Shown: one piece after another, positions 48,135-63,877 of the stretch
How positions within the stretch are numbered: position 1 is the stretch's first letter
Layout: every line of letters starts with the position of its first letter
The notes under the pieces: model-generated
Told to the model about the DNA's origin: nothing
Databases searched by the model: none
What the model saw: only the letters and a program-made list of their open reading frames with translations
Position numbers and translations under genes: made by a program
Source: a virus
DNA length: 64,000 nt
IMG/VR virus record: IMGVR_UViG_3300025929_000001
Coordinates: 31,418 to 95,417 of that record
Direction: 5' to 3' (one strand)

Positions 48135-48294
48135 GATATTTCTCCTAAATGAACCTTCTGAACTCCATCTGCTAAACGTGCGTTTATAGCGTTTATTTTA
48201 GCACATAGGGGGTAGGGTGCAAGCGCTTAAATTTGCGTGCGGTAGGGTGTTTAAAACGGGTTAAAAGCGATAGTTTTACGGGGTTAAACCCCAA

Positions 48295-48361
48295 CCAGAC
48301 AGGGTCCGTAAAGACCCTGTTTCGTCTAATTAATAGATGTAATTAATAGACTCATCAGTGG
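48295..48361 (-). ncRNA. Type I hammerhead ribozyme HH-A (cleavage GUC| between 48298 and 48297)
   Basis: CCA-CUGAUGA-[GUCUAUUAAU uacaucu AUUAA u UAGAC]-GAAA-[CAGGGUC uuuacg GACCCUG]-UC|UGG. The core is intact but stem I is short. Confidence 0.85.
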
Positions 48362-49461
48362 GACTGTTGCTGCGAATCGATTTCGGACAGCGTGCTAAGC
48401 AAGACACCGATGTTGCCTCGGACTTTCTCGAACTTAAGGTTCGCAGCCTTCAATGCTTCTTCGTGCTTGTGCGGAATCATGTTGACCATTAACAAAACCC
48501 GATCCGCACTAGCTGCCATGCTTTTGAGCTTGTGGACCGATTCGTCAGTGTGGTAAAAGGTCAGCTTAAACTTATCGCCGAACTTATCCTTTACTTCTTC
48601 AATGTGTATGGACTTAAGTAGTCCTGCGACGACTATCTTTTGTTTGCTAACAGTCGGTTCCATGGCTACCCCGATCGGGTTGTGTCTGATTGGACTTCGA
48701 TTGTGCGTCTGTGGGCGTAACATGTCTTGTACCTCCGATGATTTGAGAATGTCTAGTACGTTAACCTTAAATCGGTCAGCGAGTTTGTCCAGCAATGCGT
48801 CCAGCAATTGACCTGCGGTAAAGTCTGCCGGTGTAGCAGCTAGCGCGAGCGCTACAGGTTCCGTTATAGCTGGTGCGGGCTCCGGTACGCTGGCAGCAAC
48901 AAGGTCCACCATGTCTGCAAGCCAGTGCGCGTTGACCTTAATGTTCCCGATTGGAATGCGCCGCCTGTCTTCTGCCAAACATGATGCCTGGGCTTGGTCG
49001 AGCGCCTGGCTTAAGCTTACGAACGGTTGCTTCCTGCGGATAACCGCAACCTCATGCGCAAGCGTGATGCGCTCGTCGTGTGACCACACAATCTTAGGCT
49101 TCCGTCCCTTGATACCTTCAGGAACTTCTCGAACGACCGGTGTAGTCAGTTCGACGCTAGGTGTAGGTTGAAGCGGCCCTACGAACTCGGGCACGTCCGG
49201 TTGCTTTAACCGATACTTGTAAGCCCGCTGACCACCTGACTTATCGACTTCTAATGTGTGGTTATTAACCAGCATCTGAATTCGATTAGCCACCATCTTC
49301 TTATCATACGTAGAGCAGACATCCATTATATCAGCAGACTTTGCCCAGAGGTTAGCGGTGTTATTGAACATGTCAATGATCAGTTTACCTACCTGCGAAC
49401 GGGCTTCCGTCTGCGACTCGCTTACTACCATGCGAGCGTGTTGTATCTCTATGTTGTTCAT
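48355..49461 (-). CDS. Multidomain hypothetical protein (N-terminal winged-helix-like, C-terminal DUF2325-like alpha/beta)
   Basis: 368 aa; AGGAG RBS; the stop codon is the UGA of the hammerhead core. Confidence 0.7.
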   Translation of the reverse strand: MNNIEIQHARMVVSESQTEARSQVGKLIIDMFNNTANLWAKSADIMDVCSTYDKKMVANRIQMLVNNHTLEVDKSGGQRAYKYRLKQPDVPEFVGPLQPTPSVELTTPVVREVPEGIKGRKPKIVWSHDERITLAHEVAVIRRKQPFVSLSQALDQAQASCLAEDRRRIPIGNIKVNAHWLADMVDLVAASVPEPAPAITEPVALALAATPADFTAGQLLDALLDKLADRFKVNVLDILKSSEVQDMLRPQTHNRSPIRHNPIGVAMEPTVSKQKIVVAGLLKSIHIEEVKDKFGDKFKLTFYHTDESVHKLKSMAASADRVLLMVNMIPHKHEEALKAANLKFEKVRGNIGVLLSTLSEIDSQQQSH

Positions 49462-49470
49462 TGCTGTCTC

Positions 49471-49746
49471 CTAGTTCAAACGGGTTATCTTGGCAAACTT
49501 ACCTTGTTCCATGCTCCAGAAGTTGCCGTTTATCATGGAGCCGGCGTCGTTCTTAGCGAACGCTGCGGGTGCTAACGCTTGCTGATCTTCCAGCCCTTCC
49601 AGAACCAACTGCACTTCGCTGACGAAGGTGTCAGTACGTTCGCATATCAGCTTGGGGACGTTGCGGTGTATCTGGTATATGCGAGCCGTTTTATATAACG
49701 AGTCACCCTTCTTGGTTTCGTAGTAGGTATAGACGAAGTGTTTCAT
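49471..49746 (-). CDS. Hypothetical protein
   Basis: AGGAG RBS. Confidence 0.65.
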   Translation of the reverse strand: MKHFVYTYYETKKGDSLYKTARIYQIHRNVPKLICERTDTFVSEVQLVLEGLEDQQALAPAAFAKNDAGSMINGNFWSMEQGKFAKITRLN

Positions 49747-49767
49747 TGATCATTGCTCCTAAAAAGT

Positions 49768-49796
49768 AAAAACCCCGGCAAACATCACCGGGGCTT
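49768..49796 (-). terminator. Intrinsic terminator
   Basis: GCCCCGGUGA-ugu-UUGCCGGGGU-UUUU on the - strand. Confidence 0.75.
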
Positions 49797-49814
49797 ATGG
49801 GACGCTGTTAAGCG

Positions 49815-50330
49815 TTAAGATTGCTGGCCTTGCTTGGCAAGCTCGTCGAACTTTTCCGCAATCACACCTTGCAGACCATCGTAGCAGCCGTCGACATACT
49901 CGGCGGTTTGGATGCCTTGGTCAGCTTGGCCGCCAGCGACGTCGATTTCGCGGAACAGGATTGCAGCCAGTGCAAGCTGGGCGATGCCGGCTTCCATTAT
50001 CTGGTTTGCAAAGAACATGCGTGCATCCTGTCCTTGCGCCGGTTGGGCCGCTTGTTGTGTCGCTTGGGTTTGCGCTGGCGCGGTTTGAGCTTGTTGCGCA
50101 ACGGCTGCGCCACCCTGCTCCCCGCCAAGGGTTTCAGCGAGGTCGCCGTTGCTTTGCTCATTCCCGTTCTGACCGCCGGTGTTCGTAACGTTACCGATGC
50201 GACCGTCGGTGGCCGGGTCAGTAACTCGACCACGACCATCGCTACCCTGATTGGTTTGCTTGGCCTGAGTGGGCTGTGCTGCGCCCTGGCGGGTTTGATT
50301 TGAACGACCGCGAGTGCCTGTTGTTGCCAT
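49815..50330 (-). CDS. Gln/Gly-rich low-complexity protein with a helical C-terminus
   Basis: AGGAGCAATATC-ATG at 50330; lies 37 nt downstream of the HH-B cleavage site. Confidence 0.7.
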   Translation of the reverse strand: MATTGTRGRSNQTRQGAAQPTQAKQTNQGSDGRGRVTDPATDGRIGNVTNTGGQNGNEQSNGDLAETLGGEQGGAAVAQQAQTAPAQTQATQQAAQPAQGQDARMFFANQIMEAGIAQLALAAILFREIDVAGGQADQGIQTAEYVDGCYDGLQGVIAEKFDELAKQGQQS

Positions 50331-50362
50331 GATATTGCTCCTATAAAGATGCGATGAAGTTA

Positions 50363-50438
50363 CCGCATACACAATAAGCCCGCGTGTAAGGCGAGCTATT
50401 GTGTTTCGTCCGAGAACCACTCGGACTCATCAGTGCGG
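50363..50438 (-). ncRNA. Type I hammerhead ribozyme HH-B (cleavage GUA| between 50368 and 50367)
   Basis: CCGCA-CUGAUGA-[GUCCGAG ugguu CUCGGAC]-GAAA-[CACAAUAGCUCGC cuuacac GCGGGCU u AUUGUG]-UA|UGCGG. Confidence 0.93.
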
Positions 50439-50439
50439 A

Positions 50440-51252
50440 TTACGCTGCGGGTGCAGGCTGTTCTGCTGCCGATTGTTCGGTAGCGGCTGCTGGCGCTTCT
50501 TGCCCTTCCGGGAGTTCGAAGTTACCAGCGGGGCCGAACCCGACCGTCCACACCGGCGCAGGCTGTTGAGCTTGCACTGGCGTTGGCAGAGCGACGCGAC
50601 CGCGAACACCGTGATATGCACGCCACCGAGCGTACTGCGTTTTGATGGTGTGGTCATTCATACCGCGGATACGGCTGTCTGCTTTGATCTCCGCAATGGT
50701 TGCCGGCGTCGTTCCCGGATGCGACTTGCTGATCTCGTCCGCAACATCCCAGACCGTACCGGTCAGCGTACCAGACGCGGGGCGGGTGATGTTGTTGCGG
50801 GTCAGCTTAGCTGGCCGCGGAGGTTGTGGGGCCTGGCCTTGCAGCAGTTGGGTGACTGCGTTCGGGTCGGAGATGCCCAGTTCCTTAGCGACGTTGGCGG
50901 CTGCTTCTTCCATTTTTTGCTTGAACTCGGCAGCGACCTGTTCCGGAGTGCGATGCAGCGGGTCGGCACCATCGGGTACCACTGGAGCGGCGAGATGCTG
51001 CGCGACGAAGGCGTGCGCTTGGTCCGGCTGGATTGCGCGGCGTTCTTCGCGTTCGCGCCGTTCCTGGGCGATAACTTCTGGCGGCAGGTCGGATGCGGCC
51101 TGGTCGTTGGTGTTCGTGGTGTCTTGGGCACCTTGCAGCTTGAGCTCGTCTGCGTGCTGCTTGTCTTCAGCAGACATAACCTTGGATGCGATGGGCTTAG
51201 CAGCGACGGATTTACGACCTTTTGGTGCGACGTGGGATTGAACGTTTGCCAT
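50440..51252 (-). CDS. Protein with the paralogous helical domain, flanked by two hammerheads
   Basis: NNITRP.SG..TG.VW.VAD...T.KTQYARW; AGGAGCAATATC-ATG. Confidence 0.8.
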   Translation of the reverse strand: MANVQSHVAPKGRKSVAAKPIASKVMSAEDKQHADELKLQGAQDTTNTNDQAASDLPPEVIAQERREREERRAIQPDQAHAFVAQHLAAPVVPDGADPLHRTPEQVAAEFKQKMEEAAANVAKELGISDPNAVTQLLQGQAPQPPRPAKLTRNNITRPASGTLTGTVWDVADEISKSHPGTTPATIAEIKADSRIRGMNDHTIKTQYARWRAYHGVRGRVALPTPVQAQQPAPVWTVGFGPAGNFELPEGQEAPAAATEQSAAEQPAPAA

Positions 51253-51378
51253 GATATTGCTCCTATGATGAACTGCGGTTGGTGCTGGAAGGTTCCAGCT
51301 GGCTTAACTATATAACAATTTTGCGGTAGCGGTTGGCGTTTAAACAAACTTTCGCTAGCTTGCTGATAGGCCACCTTT

Positions 51379-51443
51379 ACTGCTGACGTAGACCTTAAGT
51401 GTCTGGGTCTACGTTTCGGATCATTAATCCTCATCAGAGCAGT
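51379..51443 (-). ncRNA. Type I hammerhead ribozyme HH-C (cleavage GUC| between 51385 and 51384)
   Basis: ACUGCU-CUGAUGA-[GGAU uaaug AUCC]-GAAA-[CGUAGACC cagacacuuaa GGUCUACG]-UC|AGCAGU. Confidence 0.94.
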
Positions 51444-51444
51444 T

Positions 51445-51726
51445 CTATGAATGAAACTCGTACTCGGCTTTCGGGGCACGCTGAATGCATCCCATAGTCA
51501 GGCGGAAGTCTGTGTGATAGCGGATGTTAATGATCCACTCCAGCCACCCTGGATGCTTGTAAGCAGGCGCATCTGCGGGGACGCGCTCTTGCGGGTAGAT
51601 GTCTATAAGCTTCGCGCATTTGACGTGCTGCGCTACGCGAGCTAAGACAGCTTCCAGCATCTGCTGATCCAGTTCCCAACCGAGAACGTTGTGAATGTTA
51701 ATCTGGCAGGTTTTATCTTGACTCAT
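51445..51726 (-). CDS. Hypothetical protein
   Basis: AGGAG RBS; the TAG stop lies 1 nt before HH-C stem I. Confidence 0.65.
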   Translation of the reverse strand: MSQDKTCQINIHNVLGWELDQQMLEAVLARVAQHVKCAKLIDIYPQERVPADAPAYKHPGWLEWIINIRYHTDFRLTMGCIQRAPKAEYEFHS

Positions 51727-51803
51727 GGCATTGCTCCTAAGTTGGGTTGAACTAGCTGCTAAACGCACGCTTATATTAGCAGCGTTTAACAGCTTTGGGC
51801 GTT

Positions 51804-52076
51804 TTACTTTGGGACGTACAAAAGTTCGACAGTGTACGCAGTTAGAGGCCGGTTCGGCAGACCGTCGAGCCTGGTCGGATGCGTATTGCTCACGGCGCGG
51901 TATGCGTCCATCGCTACGACCATATTGTCGTACTTCAGGGCTTCATCCGGGTTCTCGGTAAAGGTGATGGTACCCATACCGTCGTTCCCGTCTGGATCGT
52001 AGCTGGCCACATACATCCCGCGTTCGGGACACGGTGAGCCAATTGCCGCACCTACAATCTTAATTACAGTTGACAT
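51804..52076 (-). CDS. Hypothetical protein (PTR.DG.PNRPLTA motif)
   Basis: AGGAG RBS. Confidence 0.65.
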   Translation of the reverse strand: MSTVIKIVGAAIGSPCPERGMYVASYDPDGNDGMGTITFTENPDEALKYDNMVVAMDAYRAVSNTHPTRLDGLPNRPLTAYTVELLYVPK

Positions 52077-52086
52077 GTTGTTGCTC

Positions 52087-52272
52087 CTAAGGTTGCTTGG
52101 CGTTGTGCCATTCCACCCCGCGAAGGAAACCTTCATACAGGGTATTGATGCGAGTCGCTGGTACATTGTGTGAGCCCGCATAAGCGTGAACGTACATCCT
52201 ACCGTTCCAGACATAACGGGTCATGTCGATGTGGCACATGCGCTCAAATGCTTCACGCAATTTCTCGTTCAC
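52087..52272 (-). CDS. Hypothetical protein
   Basis: AAGGAG RBS; GTGA overlap. Confidence 0.55.
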   Translation of the reverse strand: MNEKLREAFERMCHIDMTRYVWNGRMYVHAYAGSHNVPATRINTLYEGFLRGVEWHNAKQP

Positions 52273-52484
52273 ATGTTCTCCTTTCTTAATTCATCGTAAG
52301 CGAGGTCGAGAATGCTTTGTGCCTTATCAATAGACCGCGCCATACGCCTAACAATTTCCTTATTGCGATCAGCCATTTCCTTGTCTGCTTGCAACAAGGC
52401 TATACCCGACGTAATAACGTTCATCTGCGTGCGGATGTCGTGGTTCATTTTATTAAACTTCTCGAATGCTTCTGGTGACATCAT
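52269..52484 (-). CDS. Small helical protein (weak HisKA-like H-box)
   Basis: NHDIRTQMNVI..GI.LL; GGAGG RBS. Confidence 0.55.
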   Translation of the reverse strand: MMSPEAFEKFNKMNHDIRTQMNVITSGIALLQADKEMADRNKEIVRRMARSIDKAQSILDLAYDELRKENM

Positions 52485-52499
52485 TTATCCTCCAGGGTT

Positions 52500-52562
52500 A
52501 CTCCAAAGCGGAGTCCATAGCCTGCTGACCTGTATGTGGTCACCAAGCTATGAAATTGCTTT
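52500..52562 (-). promoter_or_regulatory. RNase III-like processing stem with a switchable 5' hairpin
   Basis: AAAGC..[CAUAGCUUG-UGACC/GGUCA-CAGGCUAUG]..GCUUU; alternative hairpin ACUCC-GCUUU-GGAGU. Confidence 0.65.
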
Positions 52563-52809
52563 AGCTATTGTCTGCGGGTTTCCGTGCACGCAAGATTGTC
52601 AATTGCGATTCGCAATAGGCAATATAATCAGCATGCGGCGCTTTGGGTTTAAGGTTGAACTCTTTAGCCAAACGCGGCCGCAATGCACCACCGCTTGACT
52701 TAAGACCGACTTGTTCGAGCTTGAGTTGTTGCTTAATTGACGCGAACCGGAAATAGGAAACAGCATCCGGCGTATCCGCGATAAATGCTTTCTCTTGTTG
52801 GCTGCTCAT
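52561..52809 (-). CDS. Hypothetical protein
   Basis: AAGGAG RBS. Confidence 0.6.
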   Translation of the reverse strand: MSSQQEKAFIADTPDAVSYFRFASIKQQLKLEQVGLKSSGGALRPRLAKEFNLKPKAPHADYIAYCESQLTILRARKPADNS

Positions 52810-53081
52810 TGCGGGTTCTCCTTTTTGACAAGAACATCGGTAAGTACTTCGGACAACATCTTGTGAAGCGCTTGCGCCTTAAGCGCTTCGAACAGTGTGT
52901 GGCAGACAAACATGACCTCCGCTTTGTTGAGATCATATTTGTCGACCAACATGTTGTTCACTTCGCGAACGATGTTGCCAAGTTCGTCGTCAGACTTCTC
53001 GAACAGTTTAGCCAGCTTACCGTTTTCATCCCGCGTGCGGTTAGGGTCGCGTGGCTCTTTTGCTTTTAATGTATCGGACAC
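52806..53081 (-). CDS. Hypothetical protein
   Basis: AGGAG RBS; GTG start. Confidence 0.6.
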   Translation of the reverse strand: MSDTLKAKEPRDPNRTRDENGKLAKLFEKSDDELGNIVREVNNMLVDKYDLNKAEVMFVCHTLFEALKAQALHKMLSEVLTDVLVKKENPQ

Positions 53082-53113
53082 GTTCTTGCTCCTAAGTTAG
53101 TGGTTGTATTGAA

Positions 53114-53452
53114 TTAATGCAGAGTTGGCCGGTCAGCTAGCACTTCCGTCAGTGCGTCGTGCCGCGCTTCTTGTTGGGTCATTTCTGCATTGTACTCCTC
53201 GTGCGTATCGGCTAAGAACCCTTCGCTGGTGTAGTTGACACCGAGTTCATCCGTTGGGATGTTCTGGAAACAACCGAACAGCGGGGAGTTCGTAAAAAGC
53301 TGACCGTTAGGCCCTGGCTTTGCTGCCCAATACGGTTCCCAGAAATTGTCCGGGTTGTCGTCGAACTTGTCCTCGTTAAACAAGATCAACAAACCGCGAT
53401 CCAGAGCAGCTTTTGCCCAGGCCATTTGGTCTGTGTAGCGATGGATTGCCAT
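53114..53452 (-). CDS. Hypothetical protein (paralog of 60353..60700)
   Basis: AGGAG RBS; shared residue pattern. Confidence 0.65.
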   Translation of the reverse strand: MAIHRYTDQMAWAKAALDRGLLILFNEDKFDDNPDNFWEPYWAAKPGPNGQLFTNSPLFGCFQNIPTDELGVNYTSEGFLADTHEEYNAEMTQQEARHDALTEVLADRPTLH

Positions 53453-53467
53453 TTTGTTGTGCTCCTA

Positions 53468-53496
53468 AAAATGGGCTGACCATACAGCGCCAGCCC
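53468..53496 (-). terminator. Possible weak terminator hairpin
   Basis: GGGCUGGC-gcuguaug-GUCAGCCC-AUUUUU. Confidence 0.45.
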
Positions 53497-53507
53497 GTGG
53501 TTGATAC

Positions 53508-53837
53508 TTAGCAATTCACATAGTGTACCGGGCTGCGCACTACCAGATCCTCTGGCAGCTTAATGCCAACCAGCGGCAGATAGGCACGCGGCTTACGACC
53601 GAAGAAGTCAACCCTGCGGTGCGGTTCGAACTCCGCGGTTGCGATTTCATCCACTCGGCGCACCTCGACGATGGTACCGTCGCTGTCCCGTCCGATAATG
53701 TAATCGGGCAGTCCTTTCTTGACGCGCTTGTCCCGGCTGAACGGGTTAGCGACCCATGATTGCTGAACGCGCCCTGTTTGGTACACGTTAACAATGATGC
53801 AGCGCTGGCTAAGTAAATCACTTAATAGCTTAGGCAT
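53508..53837 (-). CDS. Hypothetical protein
   Basis: GGAG RBS. Confidence 0.6.
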   Translation of the reverse strand: MPKLLSDLLSQRCIIVNVYQTGRVQQSWVANPFSRDKRVKKGLPDYIIGRDSDGTIVEVRRVDEIATAEFEPHRRVDFFGRKPRAYLPLVGIKLPEDLVVRSPVHYVNC

Positions 53838-53854
53838 AATAAATACTCCGGTTA

Positions 53855-53919
53855 CGGGCAAAGCGCCCGCGATAACCACACTGGTGAGTTGTGGATTGTG
53901 TGGTTATCACTGGTGCTTT
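53855..53919 (-). promoter_or_regulatory. RNase III-like processing stem with a switchable 5' hairpin
   Basis: AAAGC-acca-[GUGAUAACCACAC/GUGUGGUUAUCGC]-gggc-GCUUU; alternative hairpin CGGGC-GCUUU-GCCCG. Confidence 0.7.
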
Positions 53920-53922
53920 AGG

Positions 53923-54522
53923 TCAGATTTGACCTTTGTATTCTACTTCCCAAATTTCTGCCATGCGAGTTGCTACTTGGTAACAGAAATCTTGCTCGCT
54001 GAAACCGTAGATAGTGTCGTGCGGATTATTGCGCAAACTAGACAGGTATCCTGCGTAGAAGTCGACGTCGCTGAAGCTATTCTTAGCAGCGTCCTGTTCT
54101 TGGGTAATGCGCTTGACAATAAAGAACTTCAGATATTGCTGCGCGTTGTGTTCGACTTCAACCAGATGGCTTAATTGGCGCTGCACTTGCTCGGAGACAG
54201 CGCTGGCAAACTGCATACCATCGCCGCTCATAAGCTCATTGTGCACCCATGTTTCGTGATACTGGCTGGTTGGTCCGATGTGTTCTGGGTTGCCTTTGCA
54301 TTCCGCCCATTGTTTGGCAGACAACCATTCCGCGGTTGCTTCGACCATGCGCTCGTAAGCAGCTTCGACCGGGTCCATGTCTTCAGTTCGTTTGGAATCG
54401 TCCACTTGGCAGTACCCTGGAATGAATTGGGCTGCTGTTTCTACCATAGCAGCCATGACAGCTTTGTCTTCCTTAGTTGGGATTGGAGATACTTTGAAAG
54501 GACGCTTTTTGTTGTCAGACAT
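53923..54522 (-). CDS. Hypothetical protein
   Basis: AGGAGCAATATC-ATG. Confidence 0.65.
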   Translation of the reverse strand: MSDNKKRPFKVSPIPTKEDKAVMAAMVETAAQFIPGYCQVDDSKRTEDMDPVEAAYERMVEATAEWLSAKQWAECKGNPEHIGPTSQYHETWVHNELMSGDGMQFASAVSEQVQRQLSHLVEVEHNAQQYLKFFIVKRITQEQDAAKNSFSDVDFYAGYLSSLRNNPHDTIYGFSEQDFCYQVATRMAEIWEVEYKGQI

Positions 54523-54708
54523 GATATTGCTCCTGAGGTGAAATGCATCTGTTGGATGCGGTTGGGTAAATGCGTATTGTACTGCTAAACGTGCGTTTAT
54601 GGTGCACATTTAAACGCGTTTTAAGCGCTTAAATGCATTTTTGCGGGGAGGGTATAGGGTACCCGCTAAAAACGCAGGCAACATGCGTTGCCCACGGTTT
54701 AAACGGTA

Positions 54709-55200
54709 TTAATAGCGCGTGCCCCGGTACCAATCCGGGTAACACACAAATTCCCCTGCATCATTGCGCCCTGTCTCGCGGATGCGGTCAGCTTCGTTCT
54801 CCGCACGCAGACGTTCTGCTGCACGCTTGTCGTTGCTACGAATCTTCCCTGACCCTTCGCAGGTGTAGCAGGTCTTATCGTACCCGCCGTTGAAATACAT
54901 TTCGCGGGACTCCTCGTCGTCAAAGGCTTCGTAGAATTCAGACTGCGTGTAGCTGCCCAGATGCCTGCAGTGGTGCCCGTCCCCTGAACAGGTTGGGCAG
55001 ATAACCCAACCGCCGCGCACTTCAGACTCTGCGGGTGAGAACTCACCACAATCGCACCCTGCCTCGGTTTCGTGGCAGTTAATGCAGATCGTTGAGGCAG
55101 ATTTGGGTGCGGAGAAGCTTTCGCACTCGCAGTAGACTTCAGGTTCGCGGCAGACTGTGCATTTTGGCAGGGAATCTGGATCAATTTGATTGTAGCGCAT
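54709..55200 (-). CDS. Cys-rich Zn-finger protein (two CxxC..CxC units plus a DnaJ-type CxxCxGxG pair)
   Basis: CTVC..CEC, CINC..CDC, CPTCSGDG and CYTCEGSG motifs. Confidence 0.7.
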   Translation of the reverse strand: MRYNQIDPDSLPKCTVCREPEVYCECESFSAPKSASTICINCHETEAGCDCGEFSPAESEVRGGWVICPTCSGDGHHCRHLGSYTQSEFYEAFDDEESREMYFNGGYDKTCYTCEGSGKIRSNDKRAAERLRAENEADRIRETGRNDAGEFVCYPDWYRGTRY

Positions 55201-55222
55201 GGTAAGGCTCCTAAAGTGAAAT

Positions 55223-55276
55223 GATGCAGAACGCATCCAAATGCCCGCTGTTGCCAGTGAGCATTTAGGGTGTTCT
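55223..55276 (-). promoter_or_regulatory. RNase III-like processing stem with a switchable 5' hairpin
   Basis: AGAAC..[AAAUGCUC/GGGCAUUU]..GUUCU; alternative hairpin GAUGC-GUUCU-GCAUC. Confidence 0.65.
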
Positions 55277-55682
55277 AGTTCATGTTTTTGAGATACAGCA
55301 CAAAGTCGACCTGAAACTTAAACAAGCCGATCATTTCCGCAGGGCTGTACCCTTCAGAATCTTCCATGTCCATGTATTCCAACAAGGCTTGCTTAACCTT
55401 ATCTGCTGGCATTGCTTCTATCTCAGATAAGAATTCCTTATCGGTCATGGGTACGAATTCAGGAACGAACTTGTGTTCCTCGACCATTTCGTCACTGCGA
55501 TCTTCTAGCCAGTGTGCAAACTCACAGGCCCAACCTTCTAATTCTTCTTCGGGCACCATAATTTGCAGCGAATTACCAAATTGCTCGAACTGCCCATCAT
55601 CCATGCGGTTGTCGAGAAACAGTTCAGCTTGCTTAGAGCCTTGAACAAACAGGAAATCGCTGAGGTTGCGTAGTGTGGTCAT
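55275..55682 (-). CDS. Acidic hypothetical protein
   Basis: AGGAG RBS; very Asp/Glu-rich. Confidence 0.65.
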   Translation of the reverse strand: MTTLRNLSDFLFVQGSKQAELFLDNRMDDGQFEQFGNSLQIMVPEEELEGWACEFAHWLEDRSDEMVEEHKFVPEFVPMTDKEFLSEIEAMPADKVKQALLEYMDMEDSEGYSPAEMIGLFKFQVDFVLYLKNMN

Positions 55683-55705
55683 TTATTGCTCCTAAAATGG
55701 GTGAT

Positions 55706-55758
55706 GGTGCAAAGTGCACCCACTAGCCTACTCAGGGAGAAGGCTAGGAGGTTACTTT
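55706..55758 (-). promoter_or_regulatory. RNase III-like processing stem with a switchable 5' hairpin
   Basis: AAAGU..[CUAGCCU/AGGCUAG]..ACUUU; alternative hairpin GGUGC-ACUUU-GCACC. Confidence 0.65.
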
Positions 55759-55764
55759 ACGTTG

Positions 55765-56223
55765 TTAAATGATGCCGTAAGTGATGCTGTGGGCGTGACC
55801 GTCCTCGAAAGCTTCCAGGGTGCGATCGCGGGAACGGTATTGGATATCGTTTGCTACGGATGGGCGTTCCAGACTGAAGTAGCATGGCCCGTCTGCCCAG
55901 TTGAGTGTGTGGTCGATGTGGGCTTGCACAGCTTCCTTAGTTGCATCGACGATGCGAACCTTCCCTGCGTACTGCACACCATCGCAATCCATACCGGATT
56001 CGAGAACGGCGATTTTGCCATCCTCAGCGAGTGCGGTAAGGTCGCGCAGAAATTGGATCCGCTGCTGGCGTGCTTCCCGGGCTGACCACAATGCGTGATC
56101 GTGGACTTGGCGGTGCGCCTTGAGGATATAAGAATCCAGAAAGCGGTAGTCCTCCGGAACCACTGCGTTGCGAATCATTGGGGAGGTGGCTTTCCAGTAC
56201 AGCGAAGGTGTGATGGATTTCAT
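55765..56223 (-). CDS. Hypothetical protein (SGMDCDG / SRDR.LEAFEDGH motifs)
   Basis: AGGAGCCTTACC-ATG. Confidence 0.7.
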   Translation of the reverse strand: MKSITPSLYWKATSPMIRNAVVPEDYRFLDSYILKAHRQVHDHALWSAREARQQRIQFLRDLTALAEDGKIAVLESGMDCDGVQYAGKVRIVDATKEAVQAHIDHTLNWADGPCYFSLERPSVANDIQYRSRDRTLEAFEDGHAHSITYGII

Positions 56224-56246
56224 GGTAAGGCTCCTAAAAGGGTTAC

Positions 56247-56319
56247 GCTGCGGATTGTAGATTGCAGCCACTAACCTGCTCGTAATGAAAGGGGGTGAAC
56301 AGGTTAGTAGATGTATCTA
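56247..56319 (-). promoter_or_regulatory. RNase III-like processing stem
   Basis: UAGAU..[ACUAACCUGUUC/GAGCAGGUUAGU]..AUCUA; alternative hairpin GCUGC-N12-GCAGC. Confidence 0.6.
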
Positions 56320-56325
56320 AGTTAG

Positions 56326-56580
56326 TTACTCGTCTTTTGGAGTTAAATGCTCCAGGTAAATGGGCACCATGTATTCCTGAAGCATTAGGCGCAGCTTTTG
56401 CTCTGCGACTTGGAGGGCTTCAGACAGGGTGTCGAAGGAAAGTACCTGATGCAGTTCACCGACTAGGGTGCTGACTTTGTATGTTGTAGTGTCGTCTGTG
56501 AGATTAAACTCGGTCAGGCTTACCAAGAGGTTAGATGCTGCATTGTTGTACTGGAAGTACAGATGGTTGGTTGTTTTCAA
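56326..56580 (-). CDS. Hypothetical protein
   Basis: AGGAG RBS; TTG start. Confidence 0.55.
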   Translation of the reverse strand: MKTTNHLYFQYNNAASNLLVSLTEFNLTDDTTTYKVSTLVGELHQVLSFDTLSEALQVAEQKLRLMLQEYMVPIYLEHLTPKDE

Positions 56581-56678
56581 GTCAAGCTCCTAAGAAGGTG
56601 ATGCGGTGGTGGTGCAACTGGTATTGTACTGCATAATGTGCGTGCAGTATATGCTTGCAGTTGGGTAAGTGATATGCC

Positions 56679-56930
56679 TTACTCCAATACAACCGTGATA
56701 CCTGCTTGTTCGAGAACGTTGCGCAGGAGGTTGGTGACTGCTGGAGCATAAAATTGCCGGTTGGCTTCCACGACAGATATGTGGTTAGTTTCCCATTCCT
56801 CTGCTGCAACAGGATACGCAGACAAGCTAATTGCATCCTCGTCAGTGAAAAGGTAGACGGTAGGCTTAGCCGGGGTCTGGTCTGTACGACGACCGGTTGG
56901 GAAAGGCCAGGAAGTAGGTTTGTCGGACAT
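56679..56930 (-). CDS. Hypothetical protein
   Basis: AAGGA RBS. Confidence 0.6.
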   Translation of the reverse strand: MSDKPTSWPFPTGRRTDQTPAKPTVYLFTDEDAISLSAYPVAAEEWETNHISVVEANRQFYAPAVTNLLRNVLEQAGITVVLE

Positions 56931-56939
56931 TTGGGTTCC

Positions 56940-57176
56940 TTATGCTTGTGGTAAGTTGAAAAGCTCGATGTCGGTGTAGTTACCATCGGCATCTTTGAGT
57001 GCAAGAGTAAGCTTTGCCTGGTCTTGTTGAATTGCGTATTCGTACAAGCGAAGCGCATTGCGGATCACCTCTGTGTACGAAGTAGCTTCGCTCGCTTGCT
57101 TAATCCATTCCAAGCGCCGATAGCTATTTTCTGGTATCTTGAGCTTGAACTCGCGTGTTGGTTCTTTTTTAAGCAT
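56940..57176 (-). CDS. Ribbon-helix-helix-like DNA-binding protein
   Basis: F.LKIP..SY.RLE.IK....S.TEVIRNALRLYE. Confidence 0.65.
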   Translation of the reverse strand: MLKKEPTREFKLKIPENSYRRLEWIKQASEATSYTEVIRNALRLYEYAIQQDQAKLTLALKDADGNYTDIELFNLPQA

Positions 57177-57196
57177 GATATTGCTCCTATGGTGTA

Positions 57197-57251
57197 GATG
57201 CAAAGCGCATCGTATAGCCTATGTTTTGGGATAGGCTATGGGCTGAGCTTT
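57197..57251 (-). promoter_or_regulatory. RNase III-like processing stem with a switchable 5' hairpin
   Basis: AAAGCUCA-gccc-[AUAGCCUAU/AUAGGCUAU]-acga-UGCGCUUU; alternative hairpin GAUGC-GCUUU-GCAUC. Confidence 0.72.
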
Positions 57252-57257
57252 GGAGGG

Positions 57258-57776
57258 TTAAGATTCGTGCGGGTCGGCGGGGATTGGATAATCAGCGACC
57301 AGTTGTATTTGCCGTTTAATTCGTGCTAGGGCTAATTCCTTATCGCTGATGCTGGAACCGTATGTGGCGAATAGGTTGTTGTCCAATGTGCCGTTACCAC
57401 GCATATCGAACAGACGCGCCCAAGCACGCGGGCCGAAGAAGCGATTTAACCACACGTAGTGGCCGGGAGCGTCTAGTTCGTATTGCGTGAGGTTGGCGGG
57501 TTCGACCGGGTACCATTGCCCTTCACCTTTCCATTCCTTAAGTGCGAAACCCAAGTCTTGGAAATGCGGGACTAGGGTAAGTTCGCCAAAGGCGCAGTAG
57601 TGAGCGCCGCATGGGTTGCGTTCGGTTGGCTGAACTGAGCCAGGTTGCATGTAATGGCGCAGATTGAGTTCTTCCTCGGGAACCAGTGCGATGGCTTTGT
57701 AAGCCTTGTGCAGGTTGTCCAGGATGAAAGGTGTGTGGTAATAGTTGTCGTCGGTGATTGTTGGCATTGTAGGCAT
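57258..57776 (-). CDS. Hypothetical protein
   Basis: AGGAG RBS; CG..YCAFG motif. Confidence 0.65.
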   Translation of the reverse strand: MPTMPTITDDNYYHTPFILDNLHKAYKAIALVPEEELNLRHYMQPGSVQPTERNPCGAHYCAFGELTLVPHFQDLGFALKEWKGEGQWYPVEPANLTQYELDAPGHYVWLNRFFGPRAWARLFDMRGNGTLDNNLFATYGSSISDKELALARIKRQIQLVADYPIPADPHES

Positions 57777-57800
57777 GGTTAAGGCTCCTGAGTTGGTGAG

Positions 57801-57853
57801 GATGCAAAGCGCATCTGGTTACTCCCTTAGTAGGAAGTAACGGGCTGAGCTTT
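57801..57853 (-). promoter_or_regulatory. RNase III-like processing stem with a switchable 5' hairpin
   Basis: AAAGCUCA-gccc-[GUUACUUCC/GGGAGUAAC]-caga-UGCGCUUU; same flanks as 57197 but a different upper stem. Confidence 0.72.
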
Positions 57854-57913
57854 ATACGAAATAATGCACTGCGGGGAATAGGCAATGCATTATGGGCGGG
57901 GCTTTATGGATGG

Positions 57914-58153
57914 TTATTGGAAACTGCCGAGCAATTGTTGAGCTAAGGCCATGTTTAAGATTTCTATACAATCGGCAATGTCGTAGAGTTGCGATTCAAC
58001 GCCGGTTTCGAGATTGAGGACACGGAACAGCGGGTTCGCAAAGCAAGGTGCCATATAGGAGGCTATGGTGTCGACGATGCAATAATGCTGCTTGCGGTAC
58101 ATAACGCGGCGACCGCCGATGATTGTATCTTCGTTGGGTGTTTGGGCTGGCAT
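57914..58153 (-). CDS. Hypothetical protein
   Basis: GGAGGAG RBS. Confidence 0.6.
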   Translation of the reverse strand: MPAQTPNEDTIIGGRRVMYRKQHYCIVDTIASYMAPCFANPLFRVLNLETGVESQLYDIADCIEILNMALAQQLLGSFQ

Positions 58154-58154
58154 G

Positions 58155-58430
58155 TTAAGGCTCCTCCATTGTTGGTACGGAAGCAGACGCAGCAACTGCA
58201 TCTGCACGCTTAATAAACTTTTTCATATCCAGCCAAGAGTAGGTATAAACTGGCGGATATATTTGCTGCTTGTGATAACGGTTGGCATATCGCATCGCTC
58301 CAGCTTGCGTCAGGAATGCATAAAGCTTTCCCTTAACTTCCACACAGTAGAGCGGACGTCCCTTTTGAGCACAGGTCCGAGGCACAATTTGCTTCATATT
58401 GCTCGGCCAGATAAATGGAGGCTTTGCCAT
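58155..58430 (-). CDS. Hypothetical protein
   Basis: In-chain ORF. Confidence 0.5.
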   Translation of the reverse strand: MAKPPFIWPSNMKQIVPRTCAQKGRPLYCVEVKGKLYAFLTQAGAMRYANRYHKQQIYPPVYTYSWLDMKKFIKRADAVAASASVPTMEEP

Positions 58431-58432
58431 GG

Positions 58433-59317
58433 TTATTGGTTTTGGAGCTGAGCAAGGTAGTTCATCCGCCAATTGCATGTTTGGGCGACGTAGTCTTGCA
58501 ACTGGACGAGATCATGCTGTTCCTTAAGCACCCAAGAATCCCATGTGAGGCCGAAAGGCTTAATGGACTCGAGAAACATCGGGTGCGGTACGGAATGCAT
58601 AAACTTCAGCGCTTGTTGCTTAGCAGCTTCGACCTGCTCGTCCCGATGACGGTTGGTGTAGGCAATTTCATCCCGAATCTTGTCGAAATGGGTGGCCACA
58701 CCGTCTTGGGTTATGAGTTCTTGGAAATCGGTGTATTGATTTTGATCCAAGCGCTGTATGAGATCGAGAGTTCCTTGCGCGAACGTTTTGGGCATCTCAG
58801 GCGGTAGGCCTTTAACCGGTGGCTCACCAATTTTGCGATTGGCGTTAGCGACCTGGGCTTTTGTGACTGTGCGCCGTGAATGCTGATACGTTTTGTCGTA
58901 ATCGATAAGCGCAGGGATGTCAAGGATACTACGCTGCCAAGGTAAATCTTGGATAGGTAGCGGTTGCTCGAGATATGTGCAGTATTCGATGAGCCGTTCG
59001 CGTTGGAAGTCGTCCAGGACGTAGTTGGTTACGATGTCCATAATGTTCTGGTCGCTTAAATGTGCGAAGGACAGCAGTTGAGAAACTACGATACCATCGT
59101 CGCCCTTGAACATAAAGGCGAGATCCACATAATTGGAAGGCTTCGCAATATTCCAACTGTTGTCTACCGGGTTGAAGCATCGATACACATAACGTTGTCC
59201 ATACGCAGACTTACTTTCGATCCAACTAAGCATAGTTGTGAACCGACCAAACACGTAAGGGAAGCGTTCATTACTGTACGCGTTACTTTCAGAATCGTAA
59301 TTTAATAGTTGTAGCAT
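58433..59317 (-). CDS. Hypothetical protein (294 aa)
   Basis: GGAG RBS; long ORF. Confidence 0.7.
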   Translation of the reverse strand: MLQLLNYDSESNAYSNERFPYVFGRFTTMLSWIESKSAYGQRYVYRCFNPVDNSWNIAKPSNYVDLAFMFKGDDGIVVSQLLSFAHLSDQNIMDIVTNYVLDDFQRERLIEYCTYLEQPLPIQDLPWQRSILDIPALIDYDKTYQHSRRTVTKAQVANANRKIGEPPVKGLPPEMPKTFAQGTLDLIQRLDQNQYTDFQELITQDGVATHFDKIRDEIAYTNRHRDEQVEAAKQQALKFMHSVPHPMFLESIKPFGLTWDSWVLKEQHDLVQLQDYVAQTCNWRMNYLAQLQNQ

Positions 59318-59319
59318 GG

Positions 59320-59880
59320 ATGTGACTCCGGTTGGTTGTGCTGCGTTGAAAACTTAATTGTACAGGTAGATTAGTTGGATATGCTAGTGGGTTATATGTA
59401 GGCCGGGTACTTAATTTGTGGTCGGGAGGGTAATATAATAGTGAAGCGCTGCGTTAGCAAACTAAGCCGCACATACAATATAAAAAATACTTTTTTACCC
59501 TACGGCCCCACCTCCCTACCCTAAAATTGAACAAACCCATTACTAATCATACTAAACCTGTATATTCACTACTATTTTACCTATATAAACACCCTTTTTA
59601 TCATCATTAGCATGCTAGTACAGTTTTAAACAGCATCTGCACTCCTGATAGAGATTTTTATATACCAAGGGTGGGTACCCAAAATCCTGAGCAGGTAAAA
59701 TTAGTACTATCGCGGCATAGTTTCTGCCGAGAATTAGTGACCAACCCTACCTACCCTAAAAATGCAGTCAACTAAGGGGTCTGTCACACCCCTTAAGTAA
59801 TGCATTCAACTCTTTTTATAGCCTCCCTGCCCAAATAATAGTGATAAAACACACTATGGCGAGCAAGAGAGCGATATGCA
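59320..59880. other. ~560-bp AT-rich non-coding region (origin/control region candidate)
   Basis: No ORF of 60 aa or more; strand-skewed CTACCCTAAA repeats; motifs shared with 63.7 kb; two hairpins at 59760-59875. Confidence 0.5.
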
Positions 59881-59883
59881 TGA

Positions 59884-60141
59884 TTATCCAACCTTCCTTA
59901 TGTCGTCCAGCCAGGATTCCATAGCATTACGGAACACAAGCAAGTCAAATAATATGGCTTCGTGACCCTGAACCAGCGTCCCTGCTCCAGAAAAATTGAC
60001 AGCAGTCACGTCCACATGGTGACGAAACGCGGGATTGTCCAGAATACGGTACAAATGCTCCGCATATTGTTCAGCGCGGTCCAGATCGGCTTCGAAACTA
60101 GCACTGTCGTAAACAGCCGACTCGTTGGATTGTGTGGTCAT
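59884..60141 (-). CDS. Hypothetical protein
   Basis: AAGGAG RBS. Confidence 0.6.
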   Translation of the reverse strand: MTTQSNESAVYDSASFEADLDRAEQYAEHLYRILDNPAFRHHVDVTAVNFSGAGTLVQGHEAILFDLLVFRNAMESWLDDIRKVG

Positions 60142-60352
60142 CTTAATCTCCTTAACGGTTTAAACGGGTTTTAAGCGCTTTAAATGCAAAGCTAGGGTTA
60201 GGTACCAGCTACCCGTTAAAAACAGCGTAGCGGTACCGCAAAACGCGTGCTATGGGGTTGATTTAATGCGCTTTAAAACCCTTAATACCGGGCGAAAGTA
60301 CCCGACACTAACCGCACCATTCGAGATAGTGTGGTTAGTAGCTGATCCTTTC

Positions 60353-60700
60353 TTAACCGCCCATGCGATTATTACGGGCGTCTTCTTCGTACTCGGCAGC
60401 TTGCCATGAGTCGTACGCTTCCTTAGTCTGGAACAGGTAGCCAACCCAATCGTGATCGTCGTCACTTTGTGGGTCAGGGCGCCATTCGCAACGCCACACC
60501 CCTACCACATCGCATTCTGAACGGCGCCAGTTGGTCTTGGGGTCGATTGCGAAGCATGGGTCCCACATATCGTCGCTAGATGGACCATTCTCGACATCTG
60601 CATACATGAAGGTTTCAAACCCTGCCGCAATCACGGCGGCTTTCCAAGTCTTGAAATCGTGATAGGTGCTTGTAACAATCATTGAGCTGAGGGGCATCAT
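60353..60700 (-). CDS. Hypothetical protein (paralog of 53114..53452)
   Basis: AAGGAG RBS. Confidence 0.65.
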   Translation of the reverse strand: MMPLSSMIVTSTYHDFKTWKAAVIAAGFETFMYADVENGPSSDDMWDPCFAIDPKTNWRRSECDVVGVWRCEWRPDPQSDDDHDWVGYLFQTKEAYDSWQAAEYEEDARNNRMGG

Positions 60701-60702
60701 AA

Positions 60703-61011
60703 TTACTCCTTAATGTAAGAACCGACGATTGCGCAGCCCGGATGTGCATTGCGAGCAGCTTCTTCAGCATCCGCTTGCAGACCGAAGTAACCATACTCGA
60801 ATTGCCCATCGCCAGCGCGTTCGACGAGGACTGCCCATTCGCGATGCGGCTCCTCATACGGGCGAACGTTAACCGATTCGGTCACGTTATTCAGGTAGGA
60901 CAGATAGTGCAAATCGCCTTCCTTAATGCCGCGCTGGATCGCATGCCCAAACAGCTCTTCGCTGACATGGTTGCCAACCGTTATTTCAACTACGAAAGTC
61001 TTACTTGCCAT
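60703..61011 (-). CDS. Hypothetical protein
   Basis: AAGGAG RBS. Confidence 0.65.
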   Translation of the reverse strand: MASKTFVVEITVGNHVSEELFGHAIQRGIKEGDLHYLSYLNNVTESVNVRPYEEPHREWAVLVERAGDGQFEYGYFGLQADAEEAARNAHPGCAIVGSYIKE

Positions 61012-61032
61012 GATGTATTTCTCCTTAGTTGT

Positions 61033-61088
61033 GCTTCGAGAGTGAAGCCAATAGCCAACTCGTTGGAGAAGGCTATTAAATTACTCTC
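61033..61088 (-). promoter_or_regulatory. RNase III-like processing stem with a switchable 5' hairpin
   Basis: GAGAGU..[AAUAGCC/GGCUAUU]..ACUCUC; alternative hairpin GCUUC-ACUCUC-GAAGC. Confidence 0.65.
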
Positions 61089-61352
61089 TTATTTACACTT
61101 GTGCTGGAACAGACGCCCTGCGGACATTTCCCTAGAGCATCCAGGGCAGATTGCACGGACACGGTGGAATTCCTTACGCTCGCGTGCATCTTCGAGACTG
61201 CGAACGTAAATGAATACGCCTTGCACCATGCGCATCGGTAGACCGCCAGCAGGCCATTTAGCCTTAGGATCCAGACCCATAAGAATTTTCATTCCTGAGT
61301 CGTGAACGTTGCGCTTATGTTCTGGCCAGCGAGGGTCAATGATTTTATACAT
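61089..61352 (-). CDS. Small Zn-binding hypothetical protein
   Basis: HRV...CP.C....SAGRL.QH.CK; AAGGAG RBS. Confidence 0.65.
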   Translation of the reverse strand: MYKIIDPRWPEHKRNVHDSGMKILMGLDPKAKWPAGGLPMRMVQGVFIYVRSLEDARERKEFHRVRAICPGCSREMSAGRLFQHKCK

Positions 61353-61379
61353 GTGCGGACTCCTTATTTGTGAGTGTGG

Positions 61380-61694
61380 TTAATGAAGGTGCTTATCGCT
61401 AGGCACGTCAGGAATAAAGCCCATCATCTTCTGGAGCTTGGTGTTAAATTCCAGCGCCAGCTGACGATATTGCTCGGGCGTGACTTCCATCTTAGCGCAG
61501 ATTTCAGAATTGTCGCACTCGTCACAGAGTGCAATATGTTCCGTTTCGTTACCAATAGCGTCCATCACCATCGCGAACACAACCGCAGGATTTTCAGCCT
61601 GGAGAATCATGTTCGCGATGCCGGTAAACGCCTCGGCAATAAACTGCGCCACCCTTAGTTCTTCCTGCGACAGAGGTTGCTTTTCGTCGTTCAT
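61380..61694 (-). CDS. Hypothetical protein
   Basis: AAGGAG RBS. Confidence 0.6.
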   Translation of the reverse strand: MNDEKQPLSQEELRVAQFIAEAFTGIANMILQAENPAVVFAMVMDAIGNETEHIALCDECDNSEICAKMEVTPEQYRQLALEFNTKLQKMMGFIPDVPSDKHLH

Positions 61695-61873
61695 GCTTGT
61701 GGCTCCTTATCCTGAGCAACTGCTTGAGTCATGAAGTTACGAATTGCTTCCGTGGTCGTGACACCCCGACGAATACAGAGCGCGTTAAATTCGTCACGAA
61801 GCTTAAGCGGGACCCGAATCGTTACCGGGCCCATATCCTCCTTGGGAGGCTTAGGTGCGAATACGTCAAACAT
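61691..61873 (-). CDS. Ribbon-helix-helix (CopG/Arc-like) protein
   Basis: VTIRVP..LRDEF..LC..RGVT.TEAIRNFM. Confidence 0.7.
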   Translation of the reverse strand: MFDVFAPKPPKEDMGPVTIRVPLKLRDEFNALCIRRGVTTTEAIRNFMTQAVAQDKEPQA

Positions 61874-61942
61874 GATAGTTACCTTTTGGAAAACCGGACA
61901 AGGCGTCCGCATAAGGGCCACGAAGACCCTTAAACTGAAACC

Positions 61943-62161
61943 TTATTCTTCTGGATCATCTCCAGAATCTTCATCTTCCCCTTGCAGCTCGCGAATCCAG
62001 CAAGCCTTAGCTTCAATCCCATAACTTTCGAGAACGAAGGCCGGATCCATATTTAAGGTCTGGACCATGTGCTGCATATCGTGAACTTCAGACTCCGCAT
62101 CGTCAATATTCGTGAAATCGGTAATTTGAGTCATTTCTTGCGCGAGGGAGATATTGGACAT
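61943..62161 (-). CDS. Small acidic protein
   Basis: AAGGAG RBS; D/E-rich. Confidence 0.6.
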   Translation of the reverse strand: MSNISLAQEMTQITDFTNIDDAESEVHDMQHMVQTLNMDPAFVLESYGIEAKACWIRELQGEDEDSGDDPEE

Positions 62162-62189
62162 TTCGAGACTCCTTAATTAGTGTGGTTAA

Positions 62190-62242
62190 CGGGCAAGCCG
62201 CCCGACTAAGGACTCCCGAGGGAATCCTTAAGCTGAAGGCTT
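62190..62242 (-). promoter_or_regulatory. RNase III-like processing stem with a switchable 5' hairpin
   Basis: AAGCC..[UAAGGAUUCC cucg GGAGUCCUUA]..GGCUU; alternative hairpin CGGGC-GGCUU-GCCCG. Confidence 0.68.
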
Positions 62243-62244
62243 AA

Positions 62245-62376
62245 TTACGGTCGTCGTGAGCACATGTGAAATCCAGACCCTGCCAGGGTGTCCCAGATGC
62301 GCTGTGCGTCGTACAGATTGTGTAGAACCGCGTGCTCGTAGCGATGATCGCTATTCCTGAACCAAATTGTGAACAT
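62245..62376 (-). CDS. 43-aa hypothetical protein not in the ORF track
   Basis: AGGAGCTTACC-ATG; MFTIWFRNSDHRYEHAVLHNLYDAQRIWDTLAGSGFHMCSRRP. Confidence 0.65.
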   Translation of the reverse strand: MFTIWFRNSDHRYEHAVLHNLYDAQRIWDTLAGSGFHMCSRRP

Positions 62377-62416
62377 GGTAAGCTCCTAAAATCGAGAATT
62401 GATTAGTTAGTCAGGA

Positions 62417-62623
62417 TTATGCTTCGACCTCGGCGGTAAGTTCACCGAAGTAAAGCGCTCCATGGACAATCGCCGCAAGAATGTGGTAGGCAATCACAGC
62501 CCACACAATGCCGCGATAAATCAACCCATAGTTGCCCAGTTCCATTATTGCCACTTGGTCAAAGGCCGCGAGCAGGAATGCGGTCAGGGTCGCGAACGTA
62601 AACTTGGTGAGGGACTTGATCAT
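62417..62623 (-). CDS. Small two-TM membrane protein
   Basis: AGGAGAAATACC-ATG; two hydrophobic helices. Confidence 0.65.
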   Translation of the reverse strand: MIKSLTKFTFATLTAFLLAAFDQVAIMELGNYGLIYRGIVWAVIAYHILAAIVHGALYFGELTAEVEA

Positions 62624-62652
62624 GGTATTTCTCCTAGTGAATGGATTGTTTG

Positions 62653-62714
62653 GTACTGCGGGTACTTCTTGGAGGCCACTAACCGTTATAGTGAGTGACC
62701 TCTAAGAAATACCC
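62653..62714 (-). promoter_or_regulatory. Long RNase III-like stem
   Basis: GGGUAUUUCUU-a-GAGGUCACU...AGUGGCCUC-c-AAGAAGUACCC (~20 bp), preceded by a CCAGGCC-GCAA-GGCCUGG hairpin. Confidence 0.65.
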
Positions 62715-63792: not shown

Positions 63793-63877
63793 CAACGTTG
63801 CCTGGTGGCATTGTTGCCTGGTCGCCACTGTTGCCTGGGTGCACTGTTTCTGTTCTGCAACGTTGCCTGGTCGCAAC
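63793..63877 (+). repeat. Five ~16-bp tandem repeats (CAxxGTTGCCTGGTxG)
   Basis: caacgttgcctggtgg / cattgttgcctggtcgc / cactgttgcctgggtg / cactgtttctgttctg / caacgttgcctggtcg. Confidence 0.8.

Follow-up and report, generated by a model that had tools for sequence, protein, structure and literature searches.

How are the messages of a phage gene arm divided when two different kinds of RNA element occupy its gene junctions, and do the two kinds perform one task or two? This question is raised by a 64,000-nucleotide stretch of viral DNA (the window, in whose numbering all positions are given here), which corresponds to bases 31418-95417 of the 95,417-bp IMG/VR phage record IMGVR_UViG_3300025929_000001. 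The phage is a 95-kb siphophage, and the junctions studied lie in its right-end arm, which abuts the genome end. From ~64 kb down to 46 kb all plausible genes lie on the minus strand and are directed inward from this end. At their junctions stand three type-I hammerhead ribozymes (HH-A, HH-B and HH-C) and eleven bistable stem-loops, together with one variant of the latter. Our tentative answer, to which we give a little less than an even chance, is that these elements constitute a modular RNA punctuation of gene junctions, in which hammerheads and bistable helices do the same job, in separate predicted transcription units.

The hammerheads were located with a descriptor requiring the CUGANGA core, the stem II hairpin, GAAA, the stem III hairpin, then U and any base but G, and a junction closed by stem I. 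Applied to both strands of the whole 95,417-bp genome, it returned three complete type-I hammerheads and no others; these share the minus strand and a span of 3.1 kb (48.3-51.4 kb). In 200 dinucleotide-preserving shuffles the mean was 0.025 sites per genome, with never more than one. A relaxed search, with one core mismatch and stems of at least 4 bp, revealed no further, degenerate copy in the window. The three sites have the core alone in common: every stem differs in sequence yet pairs, and stem I is open, as in type I. The core-adjacent standard pairs required by Perreault et al. (stem II opening G-C, stem III closing A-U) are present in all three, so that each site combines the exact core with three stems bearing these pairs. 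HH-C and HH-B each start 1 nt past the stop codon of the upstream gene (51445..51726 and 50440..51252, respectively), and the catalytic core of HH-A contains the stop codon (48355-48357, minus strand) of the 368-aa gene 48355..49461. One gene (50440..51252) lies between HH-C and HH-B, and three genes lie between HH-B and HH-A. Regarding their folding, the active form of HH-C is the minimum-free-energy (MFE) structure in context, and the nascent transcript of HH-B folds to the active form. The 5' products of all three fold far better than shuffles (z = -2.7 to -4.3, the value for HH-C being -2.7).

The second element type is defined by its layout. The eleven intergenic members lie on the minus strand from 62242 to 52500, with MFE folds in agreement, and the variant is located at 62.7 kb. 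From 5' to 3', each member consists of a 5-nt flank (L5), a spacer of 4-7 nt, hairpin A (stem of 7-12 bp), 0-2 nt and hairpin B (stem of 4-5 bp). L5 is complementary to a segment of the hairpin B loop (L3), with pairing across hairpin A. This segment makes up the entire 5-nt B loop, with zero-length linkers, in eight members, and part of a longer loop in the three others (6 nt in IG06, 8 nt in IG07 and 12 nt in IG12). The helices L, B and A are 100% canonical in 11/11 members and occur in 8, 8 and 11 sequence types, respectively; when strands from different members were combined, pairing was perfect in 24% (L), 17% (B) and 0% (A) of the combinations, so that L and B covary. The pairs were counted by a custom script rather than a covariance model, as MAFFT alignments left the 5' flank out of register. 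A first, loose descriptor gave hundreds of matches and was replaced by a strict one, which recovered 10/11 members in ~1 kb of intergenic DNA, versus ~15 matches per 190 kb in shuffles. The strict descriptor found no convincing member elsewhere in the genome, and no Rfam family matched any of the elements. The possibility that they are a new ribozyme was rejected, since they have no conserved core.

Because L3 is the loop of hairpin B or a part of it, helices L and B should be unable to form together in full. Hence the long helix, built from the flank, the spacer and hairpin A, and hairpin B should be mutually exclusive alternatives; a pseudoknot was rejected, the zero-length linkers making it sterically implausible. 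Under constrained folding, the energy gap between the two forms ranges from -4.8 to +5.1 kcal/mol and the long form is the MFE in 7/11 members. This long form has 16-23 bp, with 17-24 nt per strand, in 11/11, despite the varying A stem (7-12 bp) and spacers. Two forms of nearly equal energy are also what would be expected of a switch. The stem-loops could instead be left uncut, either as two-state switches set by the terminating ribosome, which would cover the 5' flank, free its partner and let hairpin B form, or as stabiliser or insulator hairpins. Neither form pairs with the ribosome site, so that a switch would have no visible output, and the constant two-turn long form would be left unexplained; the start of L5, which in 11/11 falls at -2 to +9 nt relative to the upstream stop codon and thus inside the footprint of a terminating ribosome, speaks for this alternative, which on balance appears unlikely. 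L5 overlaps the stop codon in IG04, IG14 and IG19 and begins right after it in IG07. At these four stem-loops, and at HH-A with the stop codon in its core, the terminating ribosome would briefly unfold the element, and this could couple cleavage to translation.

Returning to punctuation, both element types are found in the same place. Their start falls between -5 and +9 nt relative to the upstream stop codon, the junctions of both kinds are followed by one ribosome-site consensus, and both types would leave the upstream message ending in a stable hairpin, the strong stems of the hammerheads paralleling hairpin A. The hammerhead and stem-loop slots are equivalent, and the common ribosome site design proposed in a preliminary description of this DNA is borne out. 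On the downstream side, hairpin B is separated from the ATG by 15-28 nt, comprising a G-poor linker and the ribosome site, in 10/11 stem-loops, and by a promoter-like island at IG07. As the preliminary description had it, the product of HH-B would begin with a hairpin that competes with stem I; it reuses one strand of that stem (Table 1), and the hairpin and the active fold are nearly equal in energy (-40.3 vs -39.3 kcal/mol). This hairpin is followed by a 7-nt linker and the ribosome site and ends 19 nt before the ATG at 50330, equalling the slot and spacing of hairpin B. After HH-A and HH-C a promoter-like island comes next, then 130-160 nt to the ATG, and the same is seen after IG07 and after the terminator-like hairpin at 54.69 kb. 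A short hairpin 22-31 nt before the ATG is also present at island-following junctions (54545-54559 and 51284-51299, minus strand). Hairpin, G-poor linker and ribosome site thus seem to be a general leader design of the arm, whatever creates the 5' end.

From these features we infer cleavage at the junctions, the nuclease involved, an effect on message stability and a benefit to the phage. The three hammerheads would self-cleave during transcription, which would leave stems II and III and a 2',3'-cyclic phosphate at the end of the upstream message and a 5'-OH at the start of the downstream piece. In the eleven bistable elements and the variant, L5 would pair with the B loop and form, with the central hairpin A, an irregular helix of two turns, which a host double-strand RNA endonuclease, most likely RNase III, would probably cut. 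Indeed, the geometry of the helix indicates that the family is probably an RNase III-type substrate. Neither an RNase III gene nor an RtcB gene is recognisable in the phage, so that cutting would fall to a host enzyme. After breakage of the helix, hairpin A would be retained at the 3' end of the upstream message. Because the B loop supplies the lower stem, the breakage would also free the strand that forms the 5' hairpin of the downstream message, so that hairpin B would appear at or near its 5' end, 15-28 nt before the ATG in ten of the eleven cases, with the island at IG07. At the ends of predicted units, terminator-like hairpins would take the same slot. A 5'-terminal stem-loop with few unpaired nucleotides protects Escherichia coli mRNAs against 5'-end-dependent decay. 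The arrangement suggests that both element types would cut the message and leave a small protective hairpin before the next gene.

Another enzyme could cut the stem-loops, namely RNase E/G or an unrecognised endoribonuclease among the orphan early proteins. A phage nuclease is possible because these proteins have no recognisable family. RNase E, however, prefers single-stranded AU-rich sites, and the helix geometry suits RNase III better; moreover, no sequence motif is conserved across all members that would suit a sequence-specific enzyme. This variant of the cleavage mechanism is regarded as decidedly unlikely.

The modular reading places the two element types in different predicted units, and this contrasts with the preliminary description, according to which RNase III-like sites lie promoter-proximal and ribozymes distal on one transcript. 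The segregation that it reported is real: descriptor searches on the minus strand confirmed that stem-loops and hammerheads do not interleave. One long early transcript, processed by a host nuclease near its promoter and by ribozymes far from it, could give the earliest genes another end chemistry or timing than the later ones. In favour of such a transcript, the arm reaches the end of the genome, and of the 364 orderings of 11 + 3 elements only two put all three hammerheads at one end. Yet the arm contains nine GA/TC-free, promoter-like islands, each at least 45 bp long and situated either between genes or ahead of the first one (a tenth stretch, 62965-63037, being inside the first gene), and a 20-nt motif (D13) occurs three times, each time in such an island (48169-48188, 51756-51775 and 54582-54601). 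D13 may serve three units in common, as an operator or as an element at the transcript start. Together with terminator-like hairpins at 54.69, 53.49 and 49.79 kb, these islands and repeats predict about eight transcription units in the arm instead of one. The predicted units that contain the hammerheads start at 51.8 and 51.3 kb; in the former, HH-C occupies the first junction after the 51.8-kb island, and a predicted terminator lies between HH-B and HH-A. As a consequence, neither the single transcript nor the distal position of the ribozymes is upheld, and this explanation is considered very improbable.

Table 1. Elements, product hairpins, promoter-like islands and terminator-like hairpins of the arm (positions in the window).
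Feature	Position	Strand	Description
HH-C, type-I hammerhead	51379..51443 (descriptor 51437..51385)	-	full core; stems 6/5/8 bp; predicted cut between 51385/51384
HH-B, type-I hammerhead	50363..50438 (descriptor 50433..50368)	-	stems 5/7/8 bp; predicted cut between 50368/50367
HH-B post-cleavage hairpin	50350..50367	-	18 nt from +1, reuses stem I 3' strand; -5.8 kcal/mol; 20/200 shuffles fold as well
HH-A, type-I hammerhead	48295..48361 (descriptor 48358..48298)	-	stems 3/5/8 bp; predicted cut between 48298/48297
HH-A product small hairpin	48280..48292	-	+6..+18 of the product
IG01 variant	62653..62714	-	23-bp helix 62714-62660; lower 3' strand overlaps a 4-bp hairpin-B-like hairpin (62665-62653)
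Bistable IG03	62190..62242	-	L5, hairpin A, hairpin B; layout and constrained folding
Bistable IG04	61895..61944	-	long form is the MFE
Bistable IG06	61033..61087	-	long form is the MFE
Bistable IG07	60289..60352	-	promoter-like island next, not ribosome site
Bistable IG09	57801..57853	-	layout and folding
Bistable IG10	57197..57251	-	two forms 0.1 kcal/mol apart
Bistable IG12	56247..56319	-	12-nt loop in hairpin B
Bistable IG13	55706..55758	-	layout and folding
Bistable IG14	55223..55276	-	layout and folding
Bistable IG16	53855..53919	-	layout and folding
Bistable IG19	52500..52562	-	layout and constrained folding
Two adjoining promoter-like islands	54556..54734		GA/TC-free, D13 copy
Promoter-like island	51750..51813		GA/TC-free, one D13 motif copy; predicted start of the unit of HH-C
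Promoter-like island	51295..51352		GA/TC-free, directly after HH-C
Promoter-like island	48169..48269		GA/TC-free, D13 copy; directly after HH-A
Intrinsic-terminator-like hairpin	54673..54696	-	T run; promoter-like island next
Terminator-like hairpin with T run	53473..53496	-	occupies the slot used by stem-loops at other junctions
Intrinsic-terminator-like hairpin	49770..49796	-	12 bp and T run; between HH-B and HH-A

History rather than function could account for the segregation of hammerheads and stem-loops, each type having spread by local duplication together with neighbouring genes. This has close to an even chance of being correct. Indeed, neighbouring stem-loops are the most alike (IG09 and IG10 are identical in the flank and hairpin B, and IG03 and IG04 are similar), and the hammerheads are likewise neighbours. 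The GC content at third codon positions (GC3) of the hammerhead-flanked genes, 0.56-0.66, is within or just above that of the other arm genes (0.47-0.64), which shows that the block is not foreign; origin as a foreign module was ruled out by this closeness to the rest of the arm. Local duplication leaves the same slot and the same downstream design of both types unexplained. It is nevertheless compatible with modular punctuation and contradicts only a functional partition between the two types.

Relatives of the locus were sought by several routes, and none of the DNA collections searched held a close one. A blastn search with 7.8 kb against phage records found nothing, and a 16-nt ribosome-site probe gave scattered single matches only. 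The sole homologue of a hammerhead-flanked gene is P0002, which is 62% identical to the 368-aa protein and is encoded on a 5.7-kb contig; with the 368-aa protein and its alignment as a guide, no locus was found in viral, metagenome and genome collections. The 294-aa protein of the stem-loop zone had no homologue among 5.8 billion proteins. A primase-guided search led to relatives at 45-57% identity only, and neither these nor Pseudomonas phage NP1 contained a hammerhead or an Rfam match, these distant relatives being without the whole arm. The Achromobacter phage vB_Ade_ART (MH746817.1) was rejected as a relative. Terminase, portal or capsid, tape-measure and tail genes are each present in duplicate in this 95-kb record, as if two phage genomes of ~45-50 kb had been combined in a single entry.

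Modular punctuation has to be weighed against several observations that count against it. The covariation is entirely between paralogous copies within one genome, and the promoters and terminators that delimit the units are sequence predictions only. Stem I of HH-A is marginal, having just 3 bp and being absent from the MFE structure; self-cleavage at HH-A is for this reason the least certain of the three. No hammerhead reached the gathering score of an Rfam hammerhead model (RF00163, RF00008, RF02276 and RF03152). RAGATH-1-hammerhead (RF03152) aligned over its full length to HH-A with 23.4 bits (E = 4.8) and to HH-B with 21.2 bits, for a threshold of 56.3; RF00008 scored 17.7 bits, and HH-C matches no hammerhead model. 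Because the class-defining features are present, we ascribe these missing calls to the limits of the models rather than to the class definition.

The logic of a shared 5' hairpin, as put forward in the preliminary description, is evident at HH-B, weak at HH-A and lacking at HH-C. Although the hairpin described for the HH-A product is present, this product folds no better than shuffles (z = -0.12), and that of HH-C is without a 5' hairpin and less structured than shuffles. The 5'-cap idea therefore applies to one hammerhead in three, HH-B, and even there the hairpin may throttle the ribozyme or prevent religation instead of capping the product. As for the stem-loops, the early junctions of phage T7, folded here, each contain a 9-13-bp stem near the upstream stop codon. 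With the T7 cuts taken to fall 2-4 nt past that stem, only one or two of the five products begin with a hairpin. Made at this distance from hairpin A, a cut of the T7 kind would truncate hairpin B, the spacer between them being only 0-2 nt. A single "cut and cap" grammar for the early genes with two interchangeable modules, namely a hammerhead with a refolding stem I strand and an undescribed bistable element, in which the helix fit for processing and the cap hairpin overlap in sequence and cleavage by a host nuclease itself sets off the cap, is judged rather doubtful.

Beyond the junctions, the genome has the following features. The record has direct terminal repeats of at least 127 bp (exact). 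Among its products are a tape-measure protein of 2178 aa, T5-like tail-tip domains and a primase that shares ~52% identity with the one of Pseudomonas phage NP1 (Queuovirinae). On the minus strand of the arm are ~30 small orphan genes, for whose proteins neither PHROG nor Pfam gave a function. The arm is presumed to be early solely from where it lies and which genes it contains. A repeat of 16-18 nt is present in four copies at 63793-63875, near the right genome end and upstream of the first promoter-like island, where they could be bound by a regulator or a packaging protein, and three tandem repeats of 18-21 nt are located within the first gene of the arm (63189-63248). The product of the gene 50440-51252 (minus strand), between HH-C and HH-B, has a low-complexity, Ala/Pro/Gln-rich N-terminal part. 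Its C-terminal 70-80 residues match a domain found in ~150 phage records, including Queuovirinae, and annotated as "transcriptional activator" in one of them.

The role of phage hammerheads has remained unproven since their discovery in 2011. In the arm described here, one hammerhead stands in the exact slot of eleven non-ribozyme elements and is followed by the same downstream design, which provides a natural side-by-side comparison and points to message punctuation as this role. If the proposed mechanism is true, the bistable element would amount to a natural and compact device whose cleavage turns the RNA from a substrate into a protective cap, and it would be relevant to RNA decay research and to operon design. 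The novel part lies in the bistable family and in its slot equivalence with a hammerhead in one arm, hammerhead clusters themselves having been known since 2011.

Three known systems can be compared with this arm. Clustered hammerheads of phages and prophages, situated around single genes or short blocks, were proposed to process long transcripts into gene-length messages, and those of prophages cleaved in vitro and, in one case, also in E. coli (Perreault et al., 2011, PMC3088659). Here too, several complete intergenic hammerheads surround individual phage genes or a short block of them. In contrast to those clusters, the hammerheads here belong to type I and begin at or within the upstream stop codon, one product hairpin reuses a stem I strand, and a second, non-ribozyme family is found in the same slot of the arm.

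The stem-loops are closest in geometry to the early region of T7, where five RNase III signals lie in a ~7-kb early precursor. The idealised substrate of E. coli RNase III has 22 bp, and internal loops lead to single-strand cuts that leave 3' hairpins stabilising the upstream message (PMC3867540). Similarly, an irregular intercistronic hairpin of about two turns, with an internal loop and close to the upstream stop codon, was found in all 11 members. However, no sequence similarity with the T7 signals is visible when both are folded side by side, and the stem-loops are described as T7-site-like but not assigned to that class, because they show no sequence relatedness and no Rfam match. They also differ in that their lower stem is built from the loop of the downstream hairpin, so that breakage would create a 5' hairpin.

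Finally, the synthetic insulator RiboJ combines a hammerhead with a 23-nt hairpin before the ribosome site (PMC7536230). The order at HH-B, i.e., hammerhead, hairpin, short linker and ribosome site, is the same and would define the 5' untranslated region whatever lies upstream. HH-B differs from RiboJ in being natural and intercistronic and in having a hairpin that shares nucleotides with the stem I strand and thereby competes with the active fold.

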